From Promethearchaeota archaeon (GTDB taxonomy: Archaea; Asgardarchaeota; Thorarchaeia; Thorarchaeales; Thorarchaeaceae): DNA of 12,816 nucleotides. The translations under genes and the position numbers were made by a program. Location of the stretch: NCBI GenBank assembly GCA_027031765.1, contig JALVPN010000120.1:1-12816 (forward strand). Reading direction: 5' to 3'. Shown piece by piece: positions 1-12,816 of this stretch; within the stretch, counting starts at the first letter, position 1; each line of letters opens with the position of its first letter. The notes beneath the pieces were generated by a model. The model did no database searches, had not been told where the DNA came from, and saw only the letters and a program-made list of their open reading frames with translations.

Positions 1-8
1 CGAGAGCA

Positions 9-1043
9 ATGGATTTCCGACCCCGACTGCGAGAACGGTACTCCCGGATGTTGGCCCTGCGCGACTTTTCCGAAGAGTACATGGAGCGCATAATGGCCAC
101 GACCGTGACGGTCGTTGGCGCAGGTGGGCTGGGCAGCCCTTCGCTGACGCTCCTGGCTGCCATCGGTTTCGGCAAGATCCGAATAATCGACCACGATGTG
201 GTGGAGCTCTCAAACATCCAGCGCCAGACCGTGTACAACACCGATGACATCGGACTGCCGAAAGCCGAGGCAGCTGCAGCAAACCTGGCACGGATGAACC
301 CCGAAGTGGAGTTTGAGCCTATTGCTGTCTCTCTAACACGTGAAAACGCACGACAGCTGTTGAGGGGATCCGATATCATCGTTGATGGGCTCGACTCGTT
401 TGGCGCACGCAGGGCAGTCAACACTGCGAGTGTGTCCCTTGGCATTCCATACGTATATGCGGGTGCAATCGAGTACTATGCCAACGTGTCGACGTTCGTC
501 CCTCATGAGACCCCATGTCTGGAGTGCCTGATTGGAGACGTGGAGGACGACCCTGCAAGGTCATGCGCAGCGGTCGGTATCATGCCGACGGTCCTCTCAG
601 TTGCAGCTGCAGTCCAGGTCAACGAAACGGTCCTGCTGGCCACTGGTAGACAGCCACAGCTGGCAGGCCGCCTGATGCACATCGACATGACCGACCTGTC
701 CCTTGAGACCTTCGATATCAGCCGGCTCCCTGACTGTCCCGTGTGCTCGTCGGGTCACCACCCCCTGCCGGGGCCGGGCATCCCCAGTGTACGTGTCAAT
801 ATGCTGTGCTCTGGCGACTTTGGCGTGTCCCCAGAACACCTGGTGGAACTCGACCTCGCCTCCATAGCCGAGAACACCAGCTCCGGGCACGTGACTAAGC
901 GCAAGGAGCGCTTCATCGTGGTCGAGCTCCCAGATGGGGCCCGCATCACACTGATGGCACACGGGAATGCAGTGATAAGCGGTGTCCGGTCCGCAGATGA
1001 GGCACTCCGTATCTACTACAGTCTTGTGAGGTGCAGCGACTAG
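9..1043 (+). CDS. E1-like ThiF/MoeB/UbaA-family adenylyltransferase with C-terminal extension (probable TBP-like domain)
   Basis: GAGGLG nucleotide-binding loop, DHDVVELSNIQRQ, DGLDSFGAR, two Zn CxxC motifs (CLEC, CPVC) and active-site-like Cys in SCAAVG. About 90 extra C-terminal aa. The thiF, moeB and ubaA roles cannot be distinguished from sequence. Confidence 0.92.
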   Translation: MDFRPRLRERYSRMLALRDFSEEYMERIMATTVTVVGAGGLGSPSLTLLAAIGFGKIRIIDHDVVELSNIQRQTVYNTDDIGLPKAEAAAANLARMNPEVEFEPIAVSLTRENARQLLRGSDIIVDGLDSFGARRAVNTASVSLGIPYVYAGAIEYYANVSTFVPHETPCLECLIGDVEDDPARSCAAVGIMPTVLSVAAAVQVNETVLLATGRQPQLAGRLMHIDMTDLSLETFDISRLPDCPVCSSGHHPLPGPGIPSVRVNMLCSGDFGVSPEHLVELDLASIAENTSSGHVTKRKERFIVVELPDGARITLMAHGNAVISGVRSADEALRIYYSLVRCSD

Positions 1044-1044
1044 G

Positions 1045-3057
1045 TCAGCGTGCCTTCTCGACGATGCGCAACGCCCTTTCCACAATCGCTTCTACGTTGA
1101 ACCCGAACTTTTCAAAGAGCACCGGGTATGGGGCTGATGCACCGAACCTGTCCATGGCAACAATATCGCCGTCGTCGCCGACCCACCGCTCCCAGCCCTG
1201 CGCGACCCCGGCTTCTATCGCAATGCGTGCTGCTATTGTGCTTGTGAGCACTGTTTCTCTGTACTCGCCCCCTTGGGCTTCGAAGAGCTCCCAGCTCGGA
1301 AACGAGACCACACGTGCGGCCACACCACACTGTAGTAGGGCCTCTGCAGCCCCGATGGCGAGCTGTACCTCCGACCCGGACGCCATCAGGATGATGTCTG
1401 GACTGTCCCCATAGTCCTTGAGGACATATGCGCCCCTGTGTAGCCCGCTGGCCGGAGCAAAGGTGTCCCGGTCGAGGACTGGGACCGTCTGGCGTGTGAG
1501 TGCGAGCAGTGTCGGCCCCTCCGTCCTCCTCATTGCTACCCGCCAGGCCTCCACCACCTCATTGGCATCAGCCGGTCTGATCACCACCAGTCCCGGGACT
1601 GCACGTAGCGACGCCAGGTGTTCTACGGGCTGGTGTGTCGGTCCGTCCTCCCCTAGCCCGATGCTGTCATGTGTGTATATCCAGATGCTTGGGTGTTTCG
1701 ACAACGCTGAGATCCGTAGCGCTGGTTTCATGTAGTCCGAGAAGACAAGGAATGTCCCCGCATATGGACGCATCCCCCCATGGGCTGCTATACCATTGAC
1801 AACCCCTCCCATTGCATGTTCACGGACGCCGAAGTAGATGTTGCGTCCTCCCGGGTTGTCTGACTGGAACGCGTCACTGCAGTCAATCCATGTCTTGTTG
1901 GAACCCGTGAGGTCAGCAGACCCCCCCATCAGTTCCGGTACTCTCTGCGCCAGTGCATTGATGGTCTTTCCAGAGGCTGTCCTTGTAGGCATGCCCTTCG
2001 CACTCGCCGCGAAGACGGGGAGTCCTGAGTCCCACCCCTCCGGTAGGTCTCCTGCCATCCTCCGCTCATACTCCCGGGCAAGGCCTGGGTATTCCTCGCT
2101 GTACTGCACAAATGTTTCGCGCCACTCCTGTTCCAGCCGCTCACCGCGTGGAACCGCTCCCCTGAAGTGCTGCAGTACATCCTCGGGGACGTAGAACTTC
2201 GGTTCGACTGGCCATCCTGCCCTCCGCTTCGCCTCTGCAAGTTCCTCCTCTCCCACTGGCGCGCCGTGGCACGCCTCCGAGTCCTGCTTTGTCGGGAGGC
2301 CATAGCCGATGTGAGTCCTACATATCACAATGGAAGGCCTCGGGTCGTCCTTGGCAAGCGCTATCGCCCTGTCAATGGCATCCACATCGTTCCCGTCCGT
2401 TACCCTCACAACATGCCAGCCCTGCGCAGTGAACCTGGCCTCGATGTCCTCGGTGAACGTCCTGTCGGTGGTGCCATCTATTGAAATCTTGTTGTCATCA
2501 TAGAGCAGTACCAGCTTGCCGAGTCGAAAGTGCCCAGCAAGCGATGCTGCCTCGTAAGATATCCCCTCCATCAGGTCTCCGTCCGTGACAATCGCATAGG
2601 TGTAGTGGTCAACCACCTTGTAGCCGTCCCGGTTGAATGTGTTGGCAAGGTGCGCCTCTGCGATGGCGAGCCCGACACTGTTTGCTAACCCCTGTCCGAG
2701 CGGCCCCGTTGTGACCTCTACCCCCGGTGTTGTGCCACGTTCCGGGTGACCCGGGGTCTTGCTCCCCCACTGTCTGAAAGCAACCAGGTCGGATAGGGCT
2801 ACATCATAGCCTGTCAGGTACAGCAGGGCATATTGCAACATCGAGCCGTGTCCTCCTGAGAGGACAAACCTGTCCCTGTCAGGCCAGTCCGGGTTCTTGG
2901 GGTTGAAACGTAGGTGCCGCATCCACAGTGCATATCCCATTGCCGCAGCGCCCATTGGCATACCGGGGTGTCCTGACTTGGCCTGCTGAACAGCGTCCGC
3001 CGCAAGAAACCGGATTGTATTGAGGGCACGCTCTACTATCGTGTCGGTCTTCCTCAT
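1045..3057 (-). CDS. tkt: Transketolase, single-chain bacterial-type, 670 aa
   Basis: [39 protein letters not shown] motif GDGDLMEG...[33 protein letters not shown]. Start set at ATG 3057 (MRKTD), which has AGGAGAG just upstream, rather than 3147. Confidence 0.97.
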
Positions 3058-3272
3058 CGGGTCTCTCCTGTCGTGTTGACTCGGTGAGTTCTGGGGGTCG
3101 CAGCCAATGTCCCTCTTTTGTTTGTTCCGTTCTGCCGCAGTCCACACTAGTGCTCAGCAAAGTGCCAGGTACTACAGTCACGGCCACTGTACTGGGAGAT
3201 GCCTGTGACATTGTGCTGTCTGGACAGGCACCTGACCGCCGGGATCCTCACAGCTCCGTCTACACTACCGTG

Positions 3273-4514
3273 TTACAAGTACAGGGAGACCGCTGCCCGC
3301 GGCCGTGTCCGGAGCATGCGCAGGGTCATCTTTCTCTTGACTTCCTTCTGACTCATCAGCCCACCGACGGCCGCAGCTATCAGGAACCTCGCATACTCGT
3401 CCTCATAGAAGAAGTTGGACAGTGTTTCCATGTTCTTCGAGCTACGGTAGAAGAGCTTTGCCATCGACTCCGCCACCGCGAGCTCCTTCATTATCACCCT
3501 CTTGCACCTGTCCGCATAGGTCGTCAGGCGTCGCGGGTCTGATGTCTCTACCGCTTCCGCTACGGCCTCTGCTGCAATGATCCCTGACTGGACTGCGTGC
3601 GGGATACCTTCCCCCGTGAAGGCATCGACTAGGCCTGCTGCATCACCTACAAGCACTGTGCGGCCCTGCACTATCTTGTCTGCCACCTTCACCGGGAACC
3701 TTGCCGCGCTCTCAGACAGCACCTGCGGCTCTATCCCGTACTCCTCACAGAACCTCTGGTACCACCCGTTGTAGGCTGTACGGAGCCCCTTTGCCCTGTC
3801 CTGGCGGCACCACGCACCAAGGCTCAGGACATCCCTCTTTGGGAAGCACCAGGTGTACCCGTGTGGTACGTCTCCGAAATAGAGGAAGAACACATCTGCA
3901 TCATACCCTGTTGGGTCACCACATATGTCCCGCACGGTCTTCTCGCCGACTCTGGCCTCCACCTCAATTGCAACACCGGCAGAGTCACCGTGCCACCCAT
4001 CATACAGCCCGAGTGACCTGGCGACCACCCCGTTTATCCCATCTGCTCCTACCAGATAGTCGGCACGGAGGGCCATGTCGTCCTGTGTGTACACGGTCAC
4101 TCCTGTTGCGTCATCCAGTACCCGTGTCACCTTGCAGCCCTCACGCACTTCCGCACCCGCCTCCCGGGCCTTCTTCAGTAGGAGGTGGTCGAACTCGTCG
4201 CGCATGACCGTATAGCCGGGCATGGAACGGTCTTCTGGTACGCAGTCTATTCTCTGGCCTGAGGGCGAGAACATTGTGAAGCCGCTTATCTTCCTGTGGA
4301 GCACTCCTGTCACATCAAAGTCAAGTAGACTGGTGACGGCATTCCGGATTGCCCCAGCACATGGCTTGTACCGTGGGAACTCTGACTTGTCAATGAGCAT
4401 GACACGTAGGCCCATGAGTGCTGCGCGTCGTGCAGCTGTGGAGCCCGCGGGCCCACCGCCGACAACTATCACATCATATTCCGAAGTTGTCAATGTTGGC
4501 ACCTCTGCATGCAC
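3273..4514 (-). CDS. Geranylgeranyl reductase family FAD-dependent oxidoreductase
   Basis: YDVIVVGGGPAG, KPCAGA, RDEFD, VGADG, GYTWCFP and LVGDAAG...GEGI motifs. Start is GTG 4514 or TTG 4493 (GAGGTG upstream). Substrate unknown. Confidence 0.9.
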   Translation of the reverse strand: MHAEVPTLTTSEYDVIVVGGGPAGSTAARRAALMGLRVMLIDKSEFPRYKPCAGAIRNAVTSLLDFDVTGVLHRKISGFTMFSPSGQRIDCVPEDRSMPGYTVMRDEFDHLLLKKAREAGAEVREGCKVTRVLDDATGVTVYTQDDMALRADYLVGADGINGVVARSLGLYDGWHGDSAGVAIEVEARVGEKTVRDICGDPTGYDADVFFLYFGDVPHGYTWCFPKRDVLSLGAWCRQDRAKGLRTAYNGWYQRFCEEYGIEPQVLSESAARFPVKVADKIVQGRTVLVGDAAGLVDAFTGEGIPHAVQSGIIAAEAVAEAVETSDPRRLTTYADRCKRVIMKELAVAESMAKLFYRSSKNMETLSNFFYEDEYARFLIAAAVGGLMSQKEVKRKMTLRMLRTRPRAAVSLYL

Positions 4515-4549
4515 TGGCTCTCCTCACAGTGGACGACTGAGGTCATATC

Positions 4550-5146
4550 TTAATCGGTCGGCGGCATCATTTCCCCGTCATGTGCTGCCGGACTGATACC
4601 GGGTGGGTATCTCTCCATGAACTCCTCTGCTGTGATGTCCATAGCTACTAGGTCATGGAACTGACCACCCACAAAGACTGCCTCTCTGAACCGTCCCACC
4701 ATCTTGAAACCCACCTTCTCATACACATGGATGGCCCTCGTATTGTTGGCCAGGGCATGGAGGTACACCGTGTGTAGGCCCAGTACGTGGAATGCGACCC
4801 ACAGACAGACCTCTGTGGCATCGGTGCCGTAGCCCCTGTTCTGGTCCTCGACACTGTGGACTGCAATACCGAACTCAGCCCTCCTGTTCGGACCGGTGAA
4901 CCCGTGCAGTGTGGTTGTCCCCACGAACCTACACGACCCTTTGTCCTCGATTGCAAGTACTAGGTATCCGACCTTGAGGGGGTCTTCTGTGACCACACGT
5001 TCGAGCCACTTGCGTTCGGCCTCTCGTGACATTGGGAGTGGTATCTGAATGTTCTGCCGCATCTCCAGTGTGTTCCAGTGCCGCATTATCGCATCAAGGT
5101 CGTCCATCTCCAGTGCCCTGAGCCTGACCCTTCGTCCACAGTACAT
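4550..5146 (-). CDS. GNAT N-acetyltransferase, RimJ/RimL/SpeG-like, 198 aa
   Basis: RVRLRALE, AEFGIAV...QNRGYGT acetyl-CoA loop, NTRAIHVYEKVGF and MDIT..EF. Homology starts at ATG 5146 (MYCGRR). The ORF-track extension to 5413 overlaps the opposite-strand gene. Confidence 0.88.
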   Translation of the reverse strand: MYCGRRVRLRALEMDDLDAIMRHWNTLEMRQNIQIPLPMSREAERKWLERVVTEDPLKVGYLVLAIEDKGSCRFVGTTTLHGFTGPNRRAEFGIAVHSVEDQNRGYGTDATEVCLWVAFHVLGLHTVYLHALANNTRAIHVYEKVGFKMVGRFREAVFVGGQFHDLVAMDITAEEFMERYPPGISPAAHDGEMMPPTD

Positions 5147-5279
5147 AGGCCCAGTATTGCTCCCAATAGCTAATGACTCTTGTCCTCCCTGTACCGCGGC
5201 CGATGGTCTCTCAGGTCGATAGACTAATCTGGAGTGACAGTCATCGGTCGGTCCAGAATACCATAGGTGCGATGGAATA

Positions 5280-5882
5280 GTGAGCCCACACAAGGAGGTC
5301 TTTGACGAACCTGTTGTCCGTGTACAGTTCGACAAGGTCAGGTTTCCGCAGGTGTGTCCGGTATGTGGTGCTAAGGCTACCGAGTCGACAAGGATAACAC
5401 TTGATACGCGCAAACGCTATCTCTCTCGCTCCTGGGATCCCATGGGGTCGCCGACTTGGCGCGCCCGGTTCGGTCACGGCTCCTACCCGACATACGATGT
5501 GGTGTCACTCAGGATACCGGTGTGTGAAGACCATGTGGTCAGTGATGAGAGCGACTGTCGTTCTAGGATACTCTGTGTCGTATATGATGGTCTTCTCCTC
5601 GGGGCCCTACTGGTGACGGTCATGGCTATCGGAAGCGACCTCTGGACTGGCCGGGGTGTTGCCCCATGGACCCTGGTTGTACTGTCTCTAGTCCTCGTGG
5701 CCGGCATCATCAGCATAGTCGTGTTCCGTCCTCGCCCCCTTGAGAAGGCGGTCCGGATTGTTGGTTTTGACCACGGTGTCCACTTCATCTGGCTTGCCTT
5801 TAGTGACCCTGCGTACCGTGACCTGTTCCTCAAAGAGAACGAGATGCATGCCCAGCTGGTTGGCTGGGTCCTGCGTGCATGA
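5280..5882 (+). CDS. Hypothetical membrane protein with CPVC...CEDH putative Zn site and two TM helices
   Basis: 200-aa ORF with GTG start and AGGTG upstream. C26/C29/C82/H85. Two hydrophobic stretches at about aa 97-119 and 127-148. Confidence 0.7.
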   Translation: MSPHKEVFDEPVVRVQFDKVRFPQVCPVCGAKATESTRITLDTRKRYLSRSWDPMGSPTWRARFGHGSYPTYDVVSLRIPVCEDHVVSDESDCRSRILCVVYDGLLLGALLVTVMAIGSDLWTGRGVAPWTLVVLSLVLVAGIISIVVFRPRPLEKAVRIVGFDHGVHFIWLAFSDPAYRDLFLKENEMHAQLVGWVLRA

Positions 5883-5969: not shown

Positions 5970-6350
5970 CTAGAGAGTAAGCTCCTTTTCGCTCTTCCAG
6001 AGTCCGTGGATGTTGCAGTATGCTGTGGCCATAACGGTGCCTGGCTTGTTGGTCTTGAAGACGAACAGCGCGCATGGTTCAGAGTACACCGTGCTTGTAT
6101 CTGCACCCTGTGGCGACTCACCGTGGTGGTCAAAGGTGCAGTAGCCTATCTCGACCGGGAACTTCTCGCCCTCAGGCCAGAAGAACAGGTCAATCCACTT
6201 GATGTGGTGTGCTGTGGTGTTCGGGTGCGCAATCTCCTTGCCCACTGTGACTAGGACGTGGAACAGGTTCTCGCCCTTCTTCTCAATCTCTATCACGGGC
6301 ACGTGTTTCTCACTCTTCCAGTCAGCAGTCTGGATCCACTTCTTTGACAT
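5970..6350 (-). CDS. sor: Superoxide reductase (1Fe-SOR / neelaredoxin), 126 aa
   Basis: DWKSEKHVPVIE, HPNTTAHHI, HGES, YCNIHGLW closely follow the Pyrococcus furiosus SOR pattern, giving the His4-Cys iron ligand set. ATG 6350 has GAGGT 8 nt upstream. TTG 6359 is an alternative start. Confidence 0.95.
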   Translation of the reverse strand: MSKKWIQTADWKSEKHVPVIEIEKKGENLFHVLVTVGKEIAHPNTTAHHIKWIDLFFWPEGEKFPVEIGYCTFDHHGESPQGADTSTVYSEPCALFVFKTNKPGTVMATAYCNIHGLWKSEKELTL

Positions 6351-6403
6351 CTTGTCCAACCTCTCGGTGTACTAGGACTGTAGTGGGACTTATCCACGCT
6401 GAG

Positions 6404-6432: not shown

Positions 6433-7932
6433 TCAGTGTCCCCTCCCATCCACCCCGAGGTGCGTGATGACCCACAGTCCCTGCTCTGTCAACACGTATA
6501 TGGTGCGTGGTCGTCCTCTAAGGGGGCGCCCGGGCCGTGCCTCAGCAATCAGACCAATGCTCCGTAGCTCCGAGAGGTGCTGGTATACGCTGGGAATGCT
6601 GATGCTGACACCATACTCGCTCCTGAGGCGCTTCCATATCTCATAGCCATACGACTCCCCATGCTCCAGTATCCTGAGGATATGGAGTTTCGTAGTCCCC
6701 AGTTTACTTGTGTACTTCCTGTCCTCGACCTGACTGAGTAGGTGTTCCAGCTTTGTGCGCCCGCGTACTAGTGTCCTTGTCATTTCAGGGTACTTGAGTC
6801 CCATACCCGTGATCACACACACCACGCGGTCCGACCTGTCAATCACCCCTTCCCCGCGCAGATGGCCAAGGGCTGCTATGGTGGTCGCTGATGCTGGTTC
6901 TGCAAACACCCCCTCCTGCTTTGCCAGCATGCTCGCACCGTCAAGTATCTCACGGTCGCTCACTGCAACTGCAATGCCGTCCGACTCGCGGAGGGCCCGC
7001 AGTGCCAGCGCCCCACATGCTGGTCTCCGGACGCCAATGTCCATGGCAATCGTGTTTCCTCGCGGTGCCTCCTCTACCTCAGCTGCCCCCGTATGGAATG
7101 CTCTGACAATGGGTGCACAGCCCTTTGCCTGGACGCCCACGATTCGTGTGTCCACCTCTCCGACAAGACCAACCTCCATGAACTCGTTGAGTGCACGCCA
7201 CATCATCGACAGGAGTCCCCCGTTGCCCATTGGGACGACCAACCAGTCCGGGGCCGACCACTGCAGCTGCTCACATACTTCATATGCAGTGGTTTTTATC
7301 CCCTCAAGAAAGTAGGGGTCGTACGGTGTGACTGCACGGTTGCCGGGTCCCAGACTGCTCGCCCTCCTCATTGCCGTGTCCGGGTCTGGGGCTACATCCA
7401 CCCTCGCACTATGTGCTAGGATCTGATAGAGTTTTCCCACATCGATGTTCCGGTGCACCGCTATGAACACACTACACTGGAGGCTGCCCCTTGCAGCATA
7501 TGCGACCAGCGAGGCTGCAAGGTTGCCCGTTGTCCCACAACTAACACTCCTGTATCCGAGTTCCTTGGCCATAGAAACGGCTACAGCAGTCCCCCTGTCT
7601 ATGAACGACCCTGTGGGGTTTGTTGTTTCGGTCTTCAGGAACAGGTCAGTGATATCAAGTCCCCTTGAGAGCTCAGAGCACCGCTGTAGAAACGTCCCAC
7701 CCTCGCCAAGAGATGTCACGTCCTGTCTGTTCCTCAGCGGCAGTAGCTCCCAGTACTTCCATACGCCGGGCGTCCTGCGTTCAAGAACCCGCCGCGATAT
7801 TGTTTCACGCACATCATCAAGTCTGTAGACTACCTCAAGGACACCACCACAGTCCGTACACCGGGCTGAGGGCATACCACTTTCGTACATGGCGCCGCAA
7901 CGTGTACAGCGCAGCCCATACATCGGCGACAT
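6433..7932 (-). CDS. Threonine-synthase-fold (PLP fold II) protein lacking the catalytic Lys, fused to a C-terminal PadR-like winged HTH; putative transcription regulator
   Basis: N-terminal CxxC...CxxC, GEGGT, NPTGSFIDRG (Lys replaced by Ile), TGN, EGIKT, VPMGNGG, EPASA, TGMGLK. Then ILRIL...YGYEIWKRL...SVYQHLSELRSIGLI...RTIYVLTEQG at about 6450-6700. Start is ATG 7932 or 7923. Confidence 0.88.
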   Translation of the reverse strand: MSPMYGLRCTRCGAMYESGMPSARCTDCGGVLEVVYRLDDVRETISRRVLERRTPGVWKYWELLPLRNRQDVTSLGEGGTFLQRCSELSRGLDITDLFLKTETTNPTGSFIDRGTAVAVSMAKELGYRSVSCGTTGNLAASLVAYAARGSLQCSVFIAVHRNIDVGKLYQILAHSARVDVAPDPDTAMRRASSLGPGNRAVTPYDPYFLEGIKTTAYEVCEQLQWSAPDWLVVPMGNGGLLSMMWRALNEFMEVGLVGEVDTRIVGVQAKGCAPIVRAFHTGAAEVEEAPRGNTIAMDIGVRRPACGALALRALRESDGIAVAVSDREILDGASMLAKQEGVFAEPASATTIAALGHLRGEGVIDRSDRVVCVITGMGLKYPEMTRTLVRGRTKLEHLLSQVEDRKYTSKLGTTKLHILRILEHGESYGYEIWKRLRSEYGVSISIPSVYQHLSELRSIGLIAEARPGRPLRGRPRTIYVLTEQGLWVITHLGVDGRGH

Positions 7933-7943
7933 TGTGGCGCGCC

Positions 7944-7970
7944 CCTATATATAGGCACACGCTTATATAT
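7944..7970. promoter_or_regulatory. Divergent promoter: two TATA-like boxes, the first a perfect 12-bp palindrome
   Basis: CCTATATATAGG (7944-7955) is centred about 26 nt from ATG 7923, which fits a leaderless thrC-like mRNA. TTATATAT (7963-7970) is placed to serve the + strand S-component gene. Confidence 0.65.
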
Positions 7971-8028
7971 TCTGGGTATCCCGGCACCATGTCAACACAG
8001 TCGGTAAACTCAGCTGGTGGTGTTGAGG

Positions 8029-8619
8029 ATGAGCGGTGAAGACTCTGCAACCGTGTCTGGGCTGACGCTTTCCGGGCCCGCTGCAACGTCGTGTTGGTGG
8101 CGACCCCCGTACTTGGGACAGGTCGAGTTCCTGTCCATGACGACAATAATGGCCGCGCTGACTGTGGTGTCGACCATGGTGTTCCGGATCCCGTTTGTGG
8201 TGACATCCGGCTACTTCAACCTCGGGGATGCCATGGTGATGACTAGCGGCCTGCTCCTAGGACCAGTGGGCGGCCTCGTTGCAGGTGGCGTTGGTTCTGC
8301 CATCGCAGATGTGGTCGGTGGGTATGCCCATTATGCGCCCATCACACTGGTCGTAAAGGGTGGTGAAGGCCTTGTTGTGGGGCTGTTCGCGTACATTGCT
8401 GGATATGGCAGGCGGCTCTCGTATGTGGAGGTCGTGGGGCTTGTGCTGGGTGCTGTGGTAATGCTCTACGGGTACCTTGTTGCTGAGACGTTCCTCTACG
8501 GGTTTGAGGCTGCGCTCCTTGAGGCTGTGTTCGTGAACTCAATACAGGTGGTGGCCGGTGGGGCTGTCGCAGCAGTGGTGACCCCTCCAGTGAGGCGCTA
8601 CACCATGACGCTGGGCTGA
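8029..8619 (+). CDS. ECF transporter substrate-binding S component, solitary
   Basis: MAALTVVSTMVFRIP...GYFNLGDAMV...GP..G..AGGVGSAIAD..GGY..YAP.TLVVKG.EG is the typical S-component pattern, with about 6 hydrophobic segments. ATG 8029 has GGTGGTG upstream (ORF track starts at GTG 8017). Confidence 0.88.
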   Translation: MSGEDSATVSGLTLSGPAATSCWWRPPYLGQVEFLSMTTIMAALTVVSTMVFRIPFVVTSGYFNLGDAMVMTSGLLLGPVGGLVAGGVGSAIADVVGGYAHYAPITLVVKGGEGLVVGLFAYIAGYGRRLSYVEVVGLVLGAVVMLYGYLVAETFLYGFEAALLEAVFVNSIQVVAGGAVAAVVTPPVRRYTMTLG

Positions 8620-8749: not shown

Positions 8750-10045
8750 ATGGATGTTCGCAAGATGACTGACCGGCAAAGGCTTAGGATTGATGCTGGG
8801 CTCGTAGATGCCATCAACAACTTTCTCATCCGCGAGGACAACCCTCTTGTCAACGGGCTCCTTGAGATAATCGAGAGATATGGTGGTGTAGATGAGATCA
8901 ACCGCAGGGCCCGTGAGGCCCGCCAACTTGATAGTCTGATGGCACGTCTTGAGGAGAAAAAGTCGTCCTATGTACAGGACATCGAGTGGCTGCTGAAACA
9001 GAGGGATGTAGATGCATTCATCAGCATTCCTGAGTACCGGCGTCGTGTCCTCGGTGACCGGGCTGACTCCATGACCTTCGACGACTCCTTTGCAGTCACG
9101 CTTGAGATAAGTGCATGCCAGTACTTCCCATGGCTGATTGAGGAGGCCCGTCATGCGATTGAGCACCAGGACTTGATGCCGGGCCGGTTCATCCGGGTGC
9201 GGAACATGCGGGAACAGACTGAGGACGACGACGTCGTTGCATTTGCAGCTGCGATGCAGGTTGTCGGGTCCTCCTATGTGGAGACCCTTGATACGAGGGG
9301 GACTATGCCTGGCCCGGACGGTGCCCCCGTGAATGTTCACCTCGGTGGTCCCGAAACAATTACCGGTTACTTCGGTGGTGTTGGGATGCCAAATGAGCTC
9401 CCACTGAAGTGGGTTGACGAGTACCTGCACTACTACACGGAGTACGGTGTTACGCAAGTGCTGAACGTCAACCCGGGAACGGTCCTCCTAGGGTATATGA
9501 TGTACAAGCTCGGGATTGACATGGAGTTCAAGATCTCGGTCTACATGGGCAATGACAACCCGTATGCCTGTCTATGGACTCTGATGACCGCGTTCCTGTT
9601 CAGCCGCGAGGATGGCACGACCCCGCTCATTGGCTTCAACCTGTCCAACAGTGCCAACAACTACACAATCGAGCTCGCGGCCCTTGTCCGACGGGAGTTC
9701 GGCTTTGAGGACATTGTACGTATCGAACACCACATCACCGAAACGCAGAAGAGCATTGTCCGTCAGCCGTACGACCGGCTCCAAGAGCTCTTGGAGATTG
9801 CGGATCATGTGAAGAACATCAGCGCAAAGCATGAGGGCGGCATCCCGGAGATTGATGCTGCACGCGAACACCCAAGTGATATCCTCGACTACTTCCGTAC
9901 CAAAGCTGATATTGTTGAGGCCGGGCACATGCCCCTGCTACTCCAGAACTACCTTGACAAACATCAGGCCCTCAACAGGACGGCTGAAGAACTGACGAAA
10001 CGCGGCCTGACATTTATTGCCGCCCCCAAGCTCCACCGGACATAG
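8750..10045 (+). CDS. Hypothetical soluble protein, 431 aa, enzyme-like, function unassigned
   Basis: Long ORF with natural globular composition and alternating beta/alpha-like pattern. No motif I can assign. Start is ATG 8750 or 8765. Confidence 0.85.
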   Translation: MDVRKMTDRQRLRIDAGLVDAINNFLIREDNPLVNGLLEIIERYGGVDEINRRAREARQLDSLMARLEEKKSSYVQDIEWLLKQRDVDAFISIPEYRRRVLGDRADSMTFDDSFAVTLEISACQYFPWLIEEARHAIEHQDLMPGRFIRVRNMREQTEDDDVVAFAAAMQVVGSSYVETLDTRGTMPGPDGAPVNVHLGGPETITGYFGGVGMPNELPLKWVDEYLHYYTEYGVTQVLNVNPGTVLLGYMMYKLGIDMEFKISVYMGNDNPYACLWTLMTAFLFSREDGTTPLIGFNLSNSANNYTIELAALVRREFGFEDIVRIEHHITETQKSIVRQPYDRLQELLEIADHVKNISAKHEGGIPEIDAAREHPSDILDYFRTKADIVEAGHMPLLLQNYLDKHQALNRTAEELTKRGLTFIAAPKLHRT

Positions 10046-10846: not shown

Positions 10847-11620
10847 ATGTCACAAGATGCTCTGCTCGAAGTACGTGACCTGCGGGTTGAGGTCAGTGGC
10901 GTCCCAATCCTAGCTGGAGTTGACCTGCTCTTCGAGCGTGGCAAGGTATATGCTGTCCTTGGTCCAAACGCTTCGGGCAAGTCGACCTTGGCCAAGACTA
11001 TAATGGGACTCCCTGAGTATCGCATTGTTGGTGGTGACATCCTGTTCGAGGGCCAGTCCATCGTATCGAATACGATAACTGAGAGGGCACGGATGGGCAT
11101 CGCATACGCCTTTCAGACACCACCGACAATCCCCGGAGTGAAACTGGAGGACTTCATCTGTCGGATTTGTCCTGACTACCTGTGCAAGACTGACAGTGAA
11201 GAGTTCATGGGCGACAACTGTTACTGTAAACAGGAGCTCTATGACGACTTTGAGAGGCTCGGTATATCCAACCTCGCCAAGCGAGACCTCAATGACGGTT
11301 TCTCTGGCGGCGAGTCGAAGCGGAGCGAACTGTTCCAAGTACTTTCCATGCGTCCCAAGATAATGTTCTTGGACGAGCCCGATAGTGGCCTTGATTATGA
11401 CTCGCTGAAGATTGTGGGCCGTGAGCTCCGGGCAATCCGGGAGCGCGGTGACACGACCATGGTCATAATCAGTCATCACAGGTACATCCTTGAGTTCCTC
11501 GAGGTCGACCGGGTGTTCATCCTACGCAGGGGTCGCCTGGTGTTTACGGGGGACATGAGCATCATCCCCGCCCTCGAAGAGAAGGGCTACGAGCGGTTCC
11601 TTGCCGAAGTGGTCGCATGA
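10847..11620 (+). CDS. sufC: Fe-S assembly ABC ATPase SufC (archaeal SmsC-like)
   Basis: Walker A GPNASGKST, Q-loop YAFQ, signature FSGGE, Walker B LDEPDSGLD, H-loop ISHH. Directly upstream of a SufB/D-family gene. Confidence 0.93.
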   Translation: MSQDALLEVRDLRVEVSGVPILAGVDLLFERGKVYAVLGPNASGKSTLAKTIMGLPEYRIVGGDILFEGQSIVSNTITERARMGIAYAFQTPPTIPGVKLEDFICRICPDYLCKTDSEEFMGDNCYCKQELYDDFERLGISNLAKRDLNDGFSGGESKRSELFQVLSMRPKIMFLDEPDSGLDYDSLKIVGRELRAIRERGDTTMVIISHHRYILEFLEVDRVFILRRGRLVFTGDMSIIPALEEKGYERFLAEVVA

Positions 11621-11633
11621 GGTGGTGGTCACA

Positions 11634-12816
11634 TTGGTGCCTGACGACGAGACCCGACGACGTGCTGCCGCAGCCAAGGACAAACCTGCAGCGTATGGGC
11701 CAGACATCGACCTCAACGAGTACTCCTTAGAGGCCGATAGGGCTAGCCGCCTTGAGTCGGTAGACGATGTGCCGGCCCGTGACCGTTCACTCATCGCCCA
11801 GGTCGGTTTTGACCCTGACGAGGAATCGGTGGCTGGGTCTTTCATCCAGTTCGACAATGAGAGTGTCCTTGCGGATGTGATTTTCATGCAGGAGGGCCTG
11901 GACCTCCTGCCAACGGCTGAGGCCCTTGAGAAATATGACTGGCTTGCCGACTACCTCTGGCGTGCCGTGCCTGTCGATGCAGACAAGTATACTGCTAGGA
12001 GTGAGCTGGCACCATACAACGGCTACTTCATCCGGGCAAGGGCCGGTGTAAAGCTCCAGATGCCCGTACAGAGCTGTCTGGTGATCAAGAAGAGCCGCGC
12101 AATACAGAATGTGCACAACATAATCATTGCTGAGGAGGGCTCCGAACTGCACATAATCACCGGATGTGCCGCCCCCTCCTCCGTGGAGCGTTCCCTCCAC
12201 CTTGGTGTGTCTGAGTTCTATGTCAAGAAGGGTGCCAAGCTCACCTTCACCATGGTACACAAGTGGAGCGAACAGACCGATGTCCGTCCTAGGTCTGCAG
12301 CAATGGTGGAGCAGGGCGGCACGTTCATATCGAGCTATGCCATCCTGAGCCCCCTCAAGTCCCTACAGTCGTTCCCGAAGGTCAGGCTCACCGGCCGCGA
12401 CGCAAGAGCGAACCTCTACTCAGTAGTGCATGGCAGCGGTCCCTCTGAGTACGACATTGGTGGCATGCTCAGCCTTGAGCACGAAAAGACCGGCGGGAAA
12501 GTTGTGTCTCGGACAATTGCCCGCGACAGTTCTAGGATTATTGCACGTGGTGACCTGGTCGGACTTGCAGGTAATACCCGTGCACGTCTCGAGTGTGATG
12601 GCCTGTTGCTCAGTGACGAGGCGGTAATCCGTGCAGTGCCAATGCTGCAGGCCCAGGCTGAGGGCACTGAGCTCAGCCACGAGGCCACTGTGGGGAAGGT
12701 CGGTGCTGAGCAGCTCAACTATCTGATGAGCCGGGGGCTCGACGAGGACGAAGCGACATCCCTGATTGTGAATGGCTTCATGCACGTTAAGGTGCCGGGT
12801 CTACCGCCCGCACTAC
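11634..12816 (+). CDS. sufB: SufB/SufD-family Fe-S scaffold (archaeal SmsB-like), 3'-truncated by the window edge
   Basis: Manually translated open frame from TTG 11634 (or GTG 11637) to the window end, absent from the ORF track. Motifs: AAYGPDIDL, QNVHNIIIAEEGSELHIITGC, HLGVSEFYVKKGAKLTFTMVH, LECDGLLL, ELSHEATVGK, YLMSRGLDEDEA. Confidence 0.93.
   Translation, partial: MVPDDETRRRAAAAKDKPAAYGPDIDLNEYSLEADRASRLESVDDVPARDRSLIAQVGFDPDEESVAGSFIQFDNESVLADVIFMQEGLDLLPTAEALEKYDWLADYLWRAVPVDADKYTARSELAPYNGYFIRARAGVKLQMPVQSCLVIKKSRAIQNVHNIIIAEEGSELHIITGCAAPSSVERSLHLGVSEFYVKKGAKLTFTMVHKWSEQTDVRPRSAAMVEQGGTFISSYAILSPLKSLQSFPKVRLTGRDARANLYSVVHGSGPSEYDIGGMLSLEHEKTGGKVVSRTIARDSSRIIARGDLVGLAGNTRARLECDGLLLSDEAVIRAVPMLQAQAEGTELSHEATVGKVGAEQLNYLMSRGLDEDEATSLIVNGFMHVKVPGLPPAL

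Follow-up and report, generated by a model that had tools for sequence, protein, structure and literature searches.

What is the role of an archaeal protein that is recognized as a threonine synthase (ThrC), carries isoleucine in place of the catalytic lysine and ends in a predicted DNA-binding domain? The question is raised by the protein P0001, which is encoded at positions 6433-7932 on the minus strand of a 12,816-nucleotide (nt) stretch of DNA (hereafter the window; contig JALVPN010000120.1 of the assembly GCA_027031765.1) from a Promethearchaeota archaeon of the Asgard family Thorarchaeaceae. A preliminary description of this DNA, made from its letters alone, had proposed a catalytically dead ThrC fold joined to a PadR-type winged helix-turn-helix (wHTH) domain, which would bind a B6 vitamer or an adduct of pyridoxal 5'-phosphate (PLP) non-covalently and gate DNA binding. 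The analysis presented here confirms the observation and supports the interpretation: P0001 is probably a ligand-sensing transcription regulator of vitamin B6 homeostasis, derived from a dead ThrC fold and a PadR wHTH domain. The gene and its protein have the following parts, which were placed using profile matches, alignments and an AlphaFold2 (AF2) model with its predicted local distance difference test (pLDDT) scores.

6433-7932, minus strand: gene of P0001, a Lys-less ThrC-like domain followed by a PadR wHTH, in a single uninterrupted open reading frame (ORF) of 499 amino acids (aa)
7825-7920, minus strand: N-terminal zinc ribbon of four cysteines (C9, C12, C25, C28), from Cys conservation and strands of the AF2 model
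6805-7713, minus strand: ThrC-like fold-type II PLP domain, residues 74-376, the proposed sensor (Pfam PALP, E 2.8e-62)
7600-7602, minus strand: codon ATA of Ile111 at the position of the Schiff-base Lys, within NPTGSFIDRG (codon read and alignments)
6697-6780, minus strand: linker, residues about 385-412, with low model confidence (AF2 pLDDT)
6457-6696, minus strand: PadR-type wHTH, residues about 413-492 (Pfam PF03551 and AF2 topology)

The presence of both domains in one reading frame is borne out by Pfam, with the PadR profile (PF03551) matching residues 418-485 at 41.6 bits against a cut-off of 27 (E 1.2e-10). Fold-type II PLP enzymes need a Schiff-base Lys. In residue-by-residue alignments with the solved threonine synthases 6cgq and 2zsj, Ile111 faces the Lys of NPTGSFKDRG, as read earlier from the codon, and the accompanying motif changes are also found: STGNT has become TTGNL, NSVNPYR has become TPYDPYF, and GNAGN has become GNGGL. 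In terms of single positions, Lys is replaced by I111, the Thr of STGNT by L138, the Asn, Ser and Arg of NSxNPxR by T202, P203 and F208, and the Asn of GNAGN by L240. The residues lost besides Lys presumably form the site for the phosphate of O-phosphohomoserine, as in the Thermus thermophilus structures. The cofactor-contacting motifs are retained, namely the TGN Asn (N137), the Gly-rich phosphate loop (G236, G238 and G239), E345-P346 of EPASA, and T375-G376. Judged by the defining catalytic features, which are the Schiff-base Lys and the phosphate-site residues read from these alignments, P0001 is not a threonine synthase. Its scores nevertheless pass the NCBIfam threonine-synthase equivalog cut-offs (NF006050, 315.8 versus 303; TIGR00260, 187.3 versus 167.1), and in the records of NCBI and JGI its homologues go by the name "threonine synthase", just as the preliminary description had expected of automatic annotation.

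Structure modelling, one of the checks suggested at that stage, returned a ThrC fold and a winged helix. The AF2 model, for which the input held 61 family members, has a mean pLDDT of 86.5, and its top Foldseek matches are the threonine synthases 2c2b, 6cgq and 2zsj (template modelling score to the target 0.81-0.87), with 35-37% sequence identity between P0001 and solved ThrC proteins. The zinc ribbon is modelled with strands at residues 4-9 and 31-36, whereas the linker has a pLDDT of 45-56 over residues 380-410. The C-terminal domain (pLDDT 67-93) consists of helices 413-423, 429-440 and 446-458, two wing strands and a helix at 483-492, and this is the winged helix-turn-helix with C-terminal helix expected of the PadR family. 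P0001 was also predicted to form a homodimer, with an interaction prediction score from aligned errors (ipSAE) of 0.83 against 0.00 for the best control, agreement between runs of at least 63% of contacts, and a partner pLDDT of at least 82; in a benchmark, 20 of 30 proteins solved as pairs scored at least this high, as did one of 23 solved as single chains. The predicted interface lies in the ThrC domain, includes residues 103-108 beside the former Lys loop, and resembles that of solved ThrC dimers. Because such dimers have been solved, this result may reflect likeness to them.

With one genome taken per GTDB species, a scan revealed at least 585 related loci, spread over Asgard archaea, Bathyarchaeia, Nitrososphaerota, Thermoplasmata and others; the best 80 of these were analysed, along with seven further Asgard loci. 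All of the best 120 homologues carry both domains, and the Lys column has Ile in 106 and Leu in 14 of them. All but one, which is from Bathyarchaeia, belong to Asgard archaea of the Thor, Loki, Hod, Odin and Sif types. In a maximum-likelihood tree (quick search; supports from the Shimodaira-Hasegawa-like approximate likelihood ratio test, SH-aLRT), the fused proteins make up a single clade separate from the unfused, Lys-bearing ThrC proteins (SH-aLRT 95). This clade is divided into two subclades. The first (43 rows, support 99), which includes P0001, has a hydrophobic residue at position 111 (Ile in 19, Leu in 19, Met in four and Val in one), whereas the second (support 100) has Arg in 29, Lys in 12 and Ser in one, and is referred to below as the R/K subclade. 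The tabulation of fused homologues put forward in the preliminary description came out in favour of its proposal, with Ile, Leu, Met or Val throughout the subclade of P0001; Lys- or Arg-bearing fused members are found in the sister subclade. On this alignment, the loss of Lys is a trait of one subclade and not of the entire fusion family. The four zinc-ribbon cysteines are shared by the two fused subclades and by NF006050-type unfused ThrC.

The other changes seen in P0001 recur within the hydrophobic subclade. Leu or Phe takes the place of the STGNT Thr in 42 of the 43 rows (37 and five, respectively), Phe, Leu or Ile that of the NPYR Arg in 41 (30, seven and four), and mostly His that of the final Asn of GNAGN, while two conserved acidic residues, D164 and D298, are newly present. 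N137, G236, G238, E345, P346 and T375 are invariant in all 43 rows, and G376 is found in 42. With a mean column identity of 55-62% and many invariant columns, the family is clearly under purifying selection. Since Ile or Leu occupies the Lys position in 120 of 120 homologues and the changes recur across a 43-member subclade, they reflect neither chance nor sequencing error, in agreement with what had been argued from the concerted changes in the single sequence. In three Bathyarchaeia loci (L078, L080 and L082), an unfused Lys-bearing ThrC gene adjoins an Arg-variant fused gene and an S-component gene, so that the enzyme and the regulator derived from it are neighbours in some genomes.

The genes next to the fusion gene point to the pathway. 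Two of them are encoded on the opposite strand of the window, divergently from P0001.

8017-8619, plus strand: S-component of an energy-coupling factor (ECF) transporter, PdxU/PdxU2 family, the proposed target (Pfam PF07155, 118 bits versus a cut-off of 26.7)
8750-10045, plus strand: conserved protein of 426-431 aa, possibly a co-regulated gene (always paired with the S-component in Thor-like genomes)

The S-component resembles PdxU, PdxU2 and HmpT (PF07155, COG4720), and the genome has no other strong match to PF07155. Its sole match in the PDB is 4hzu_S, the HmpT/PdxU2 protein from Lactobacillus brevis (E 1.6e-15, full length). PdxU and PdxU2/HmpT, both PF07155 proteins, are together with P5PA the only characterized prokaryotic B6 transporters (PMC9997740), and the substrate of HmpT is pyridoxamine (PMC4860826). 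The S-component of the window differs from HmpT at the pyridoxamine-binding residues Glu41 and His84, which align with Asp and Lys, and these two residues are conserved among four Asgard orthologues. Its ORF extends 40 codons upstream to a GTG at 8017, but in the alignment the orthologues start opposite ATG 8137; this ATG is probably the true start and 8017-8136 a 5' leader, as judged from the orthologues, and the intergenic region would therefore span about 204 nt.

Using a profile built from four S-components, we found such a gene directly beside the fusion gene in 57 of the 80 loci (Asgard archaea, Bathyarchaeia, Nitrososphaerota and others) and in five of the seven further Asgard loci. In the hydrophobic subclade it is placed divergently upstream, whereas in the R/K subclade it lies mostly downstream on the same strand. 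Where the S-component is not adjacent, the PLP synthase genes pdxS-pdxT often adjoin the regulator (seven loci in several phyla: L110, which was confirmed by Pfam, L039, L042, L043, L045, L076 and L085). L110, from an Asgard archaeon of another family, has the regulator gene followed after a gap of 43 nt by pdxS and pdxT. The pair is divergent from the regulator in metagenome-assembled genomes (MAGs) of Thermoplasmata (one), Methanobacteriota (one), Bathyarchaeia (two) and Nitrososphaerales (one), and is found downstream of it in one further MAG. Because a PdxU/PdxU2-family S-component or pdxST adjoins the gene across phyla, the idea of a B6 vitamer as ligand gains independent support, and because these are genes of B6 uptake or synthesis, the family is most likely an archaeal vitamin B6 regulator.

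The B6 economy of the genome is in line with these neighbourhoods. Neither PdxS nor PdxJ was found in the genome of P0001 (2.95 Mb, 95% complete), and PdxS was found in none of 24 other genomes of the same family, compared to six of 16 genomes from other Asgard families. The S-component is present in 33 of the 35 Asgard genomes without PdxS, the two exceptions being 88% and 77% complete, and in one of the six with PdxS, as a partial match only; as the 41 genomes are related, this complementarity describes a pattern and does not amount to a statistical test. Two CbiQ/EcfT matches (contigs C41 and C89) could serve the solitary S-component. For PdxK, the genome has a borderline PF08543 match only (26.8 bits, in a 521-aa frame on C47). 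Thor-type Asgard archaea appear, from their gene content, unable to make PLP de novo and reliant on an importer of the PdxU type.

The region between the two divergent genes contains two elements.

7944-7955, no strand: perfect 12-bp palindrome CCTATATATAGG, candidate operator, 12-23 nt upstream of the ATG of the regulator
7962-7972, no strand: second TATA-like box CTTATATATTC (ATATATAAG on the regulator strand), 7 nt from the palindrome

The exact 12-mer has a single copy in the 2.95-Mb genome. Within 100 nt upstream of the fusion gene, the palindrome occurs with at most two mismatches in 32 of 40 loci of the hydrophobic subclade (15 of them exact), compared to none of 39 loci of the R/K subclade, with an expectation from shuffled sequences of 0.005 per locus. 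In an alignment of upstream regions, members from Thor, Loki, Hod, Bathyarchaeia and Nitrososphaerota share ATATATAAG, a spacer of 6-8 nt and then CCTAYATATAGG, and some of the pdxST-linked members have the related palindromes CCTATGCATAGG or CCCATATATGG. We infer that the box at 7962-7972 acts as a TATA box. Since its outer bases are conserved and it occurs together with the regulator, the palindrome is a candidate operator overlapping the core promoters. When the motif was used to look for further members of the regulon in this genome, two one-mismatch sites were obtained, neither of which has a link to B6: one is inside an RFC gene, and the other precedes a 156-aa ORF without annotation. 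A search against Rfam gave no known RNA element in the window.

These features can be combined in the following mechanism. P0001 would dimerize via its ThrC-like interface. Its cofactor pocket, which has been retained, would bind a phosphorylated vitamer of B6 non-covalently, most likely PLP, and ligand binding would alter how the two winged helices engage the palindrome. The ligand-bound protein would sit on CCTATATATAGG, overlapping core promoter elements of both divergent genes, and, under ample B6 supply, would keep both its own gene and that for B6 uptake repressed; among the steps proposed, the direction of control is the least secure. As the organism shows no known de novo pathway to PLP, the module would tune the scavenging of B6.

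Several observations weigh against a B6-responsive repressor of this kind. The identity of the ligand, its non-covalent binding and the binding of DNA by P0001 are inferences. The sister R/K subclade retains Lys or carries Arg and does not have the palindrome, and the two subclades may therefore work in different ways. As Asp and Lys stand where HmpT has Glu41 and His84, B6 is a presumed substrate of the S-component. The regulator was not found in nine of 25 genomes of the same family, all nine of which retain the S-component and its partner gene, and it is therefore dispensable. The five of these nine whose S-component locus was read (G005, G020, G003, G011 and G014; loci L120-L124) have neither the regulator nor the palindrome. 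In L121, a 126-aa ORF of the size of the desulfoferrodoxin gene in the window is located directly upstream of the S-component at the place of the regulator, an arrangement that suggests clean loss of the regulator within the lineage (one upstream region was read). The only run listed with this DNA is a hydrothermal vent metagenome, available as contigs, which is probably the source of the window, and no RNA run is listed. Finally, near-matches to the motif are not enriched genome-wide, and the palindrome is itself TATA-like and could be a conserved promoter element.

This last point leads to an alternative that we consider unlikely: the palindrome would be merely a strong, conserved TATA box, with the operator elsewhere or with P0001 acting without sequence-specific DNA binding. 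The core of the motif is TATATATA, its distance from the start codons is typical of promoter elements, and near-matches occur across genomes at control level (in the AT-rich genomes G031, G033 and G035, at or below the reversed-pattern control). However, the flanking CC and GG, to which the site owes its perfect symmetry, are conserved from Asgard archaea to Nitrososphaerota only before this gene family, and the exact 12-mer is unique in the genome. The palindrome is also absent in those relatives without the regulator that keep the S-component at the same position, and pdxST-linked members have palindromes with non-TATA cores such as CCTATGCATAGG.

It is rather improbable that P0001 is a regulator sensing something else, be it an amino acid, a PLP-amino-acid adduct, O-phosphohomoserine, threonine or another cofactor, with the S-component importing that compound. 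The remodelling of the pocket to hydrophobic residues (L138, F208 and L240), with the new conserved acidic residues D164 and D298, is what such a change of ligand might look like. In addition, the S-component has other residues where HmpT contacts pyridoxamine, and riboflavin figures in the name that Pfam gives to PF07155. Against this, the adjacency of pdxS-pdxT at seven loci across phyla is a specific pointer to B6, and the S-component and PdxS are complementary in their distribution. The loss of the substrate-phosphate residues argues against O-phosphohomoserine, and the retained part of the domain is that of the cofactor-contact motifs.

That P0001 is still an enzyme, as a threonine synthase or with another PLP-dependent or -independent activity, and bifunctional with its wHTH domain like archaeal RbkR, is highly improbable. 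The scores above the NCBIfam threonine-synthase cut-offs and the Lys kept in some fused family members would fit such a role, but the essential Schiff-base Lys is Ile here and the residues of the substrate phosphate site are replaced. The search for a separate Lys-bearing thrC, mentioned as a check in the preliminary description, gave two Zn-ribbon ThrC-family paralogues that can do the enzymatic work: one on contig C110 (L009:1405-2697:-, NPSGSFKDR) and one on C211 (L010:1324-2487:+, NPTASFKDRG). Both exceed the NF006050 cut-off, and the true ThrC may be one of them. The chance that the Lys loss stems from an error in sequencing or assembly, or from the decay of a pseudogene, is negligible: AAA differs from ATA by a single base, but the table of homologues, with Ile or Leu in all 120 closest ones, already refutes this, the frame is intact, the family is under purifying selection, and the independent Logan assembly of the run that is probably the source of the window is letter-identical over 7300-8200 at a depth of 11.7.

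Among known systems, the closest in logic to the proposed regulation of B6 genes by P0001 are the bacterial PdxR and MocR regulators (GabR subfamily), in which the fold of a PLP enzyme likewise serves as the sensor of a winged-helix protein. The regulons of PdxR in bacteria include pdxST, pdxK and pdxU, and Archaea are reported to have no MocR regulators (PMC5320631). As in PdxR systems, B6 genes (pdxST or a pdxU-like gene) adjoin the family of P0001, and the regulator gene is divergent from its putative target, the regulation itself being our proposal. However, in MocR proteins the wHTH is N-terminal and of the GntR type, and it is joined to an aminotransferase domain of fold-type I that keeps its Lys, whereas P0001 has a C-terminal PadR wHTH and a fold-type II domain without Lys. 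By this comparison, the family of P0001 is an independent invention and not a member of the MocR family, and it would be a functional analogue of PdxR.

With the Zn-ribbon threonine synthases (NF006050/PRK08197; 6cgq, 2zsj, 1v7c and 2c2b), P0001 shares the fold, the Zn ribbon, the cofactor motifs and, as predicted, the type of dimer interface; unlike them, it has replaced the Schiff-base Lys and the phosphate-site residues and has gained a C-terminal DNA-binding domain. The latter resembles PadR and LmrR of the PadR family in having a short wHTH followed by one C-terminal helix. Characterized PadR-family members are dimeric and bind palindromic operators. Unlike known PadR proteins, which are small and bind ligands in or near the dimerization region, P0001 has a 400-residue enzyme-derived domain as its presumed sensor and dimer interface. 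In Archaea, ThiR (with a ThiN domain) and RbkR (with a riboflavin kinase) combine the fold of a vitamin-pathway enzyme with a DNA-binding domain and control genes for the synthesis or uptake of the vitamin concerned. P0001 differs from both in the vitamin, the fold and the DNA-binding family, and its sensor comes from an enzyme that uses the cofactor and not from an enzyme of the B6 pathway.

A wider reading, which we offer as a tentative possibility, is that the ThrC-PadR family is a general B6 (PLP) regulator of Asgard and TACK (Thaumarchaeota, Aigarchaeota, Crenarchaeota and Korarchaeota) archaea. The family would have arisen independently of PdxR through the disabling of a fold-type II PLP enzyme, its hydrophobic subclade would read free PLP non-covalently via CCTATATATAGG, and the 426-aa partner would be the missing salvage enzyme in the PdxST-less scavenging module of Thor-type archaea. 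The idea of a missing B6 salvage enzyme stems from the lack of a clear PdxK in the genome and is speculation. Where the regulator has been lost, the partner gene is still found paired with the S-component. Between Thor, Sif and Loki archaea, the soluble 426-431-aa product of the partner gene shows about 75-78% identity, and it has at least 8000 related proteins, the named ones among the matches listed all being labelled "hypothetical". Searches in Pfam, NCBIfam, PDB profiles and the ESM Atlas gave no usable match for this protein, and the AF2 model of its 431-aa form was poor (pLDDT 55).

Directly downstream of the regulator, a desulfoferrodoxin/superoxide reductase gene is located at 5970-6359 on the minus strand, and the same order is found in the Thor locus L019 and the Loki locus L022. 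The other genes of the window (1-5413 and 10847-12815) encode a ThiF/MoeB-type adenylyltransferase, a transketolase, a member of the geranylgeranyl reductase family, a GNAT acetyltransferase, and SufC-like and SufB/D proteins, and have no evident tie to the B6 module.

A full-text literature search found no description of a regulator combining a ThrC-like domain with a PadR or other wHTH domain, or of an archaeal B6 regulator. The only thrC fusion mentioned in a survey of archaeal fusions is cysH-thrC (PMC11237513), and the regulation of the PdxST pathway is described as poorly characterized in a 2025 preprint. The family of P0001 would thus fill a missing slot, as no archaeal vitamin B6 regulator was found described in the searchable literature. 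It would also represent an enzyme turned sensor by convergent evolution, in which the solution of PdxR was reached from a different fold. The family, with at least 585 loci among species-representative genomes, passes NCBI's equivalog models as "threonine synthase", so that thrC is over-counted and a regulator overlooked when the metabolism of uncultured archaea is reconstructed. For the Thor-type Asgard archaea themselves, the apparent B6 auxotrophy may be useful in designing media for these hard-to-culture relatives of eukaryotes.

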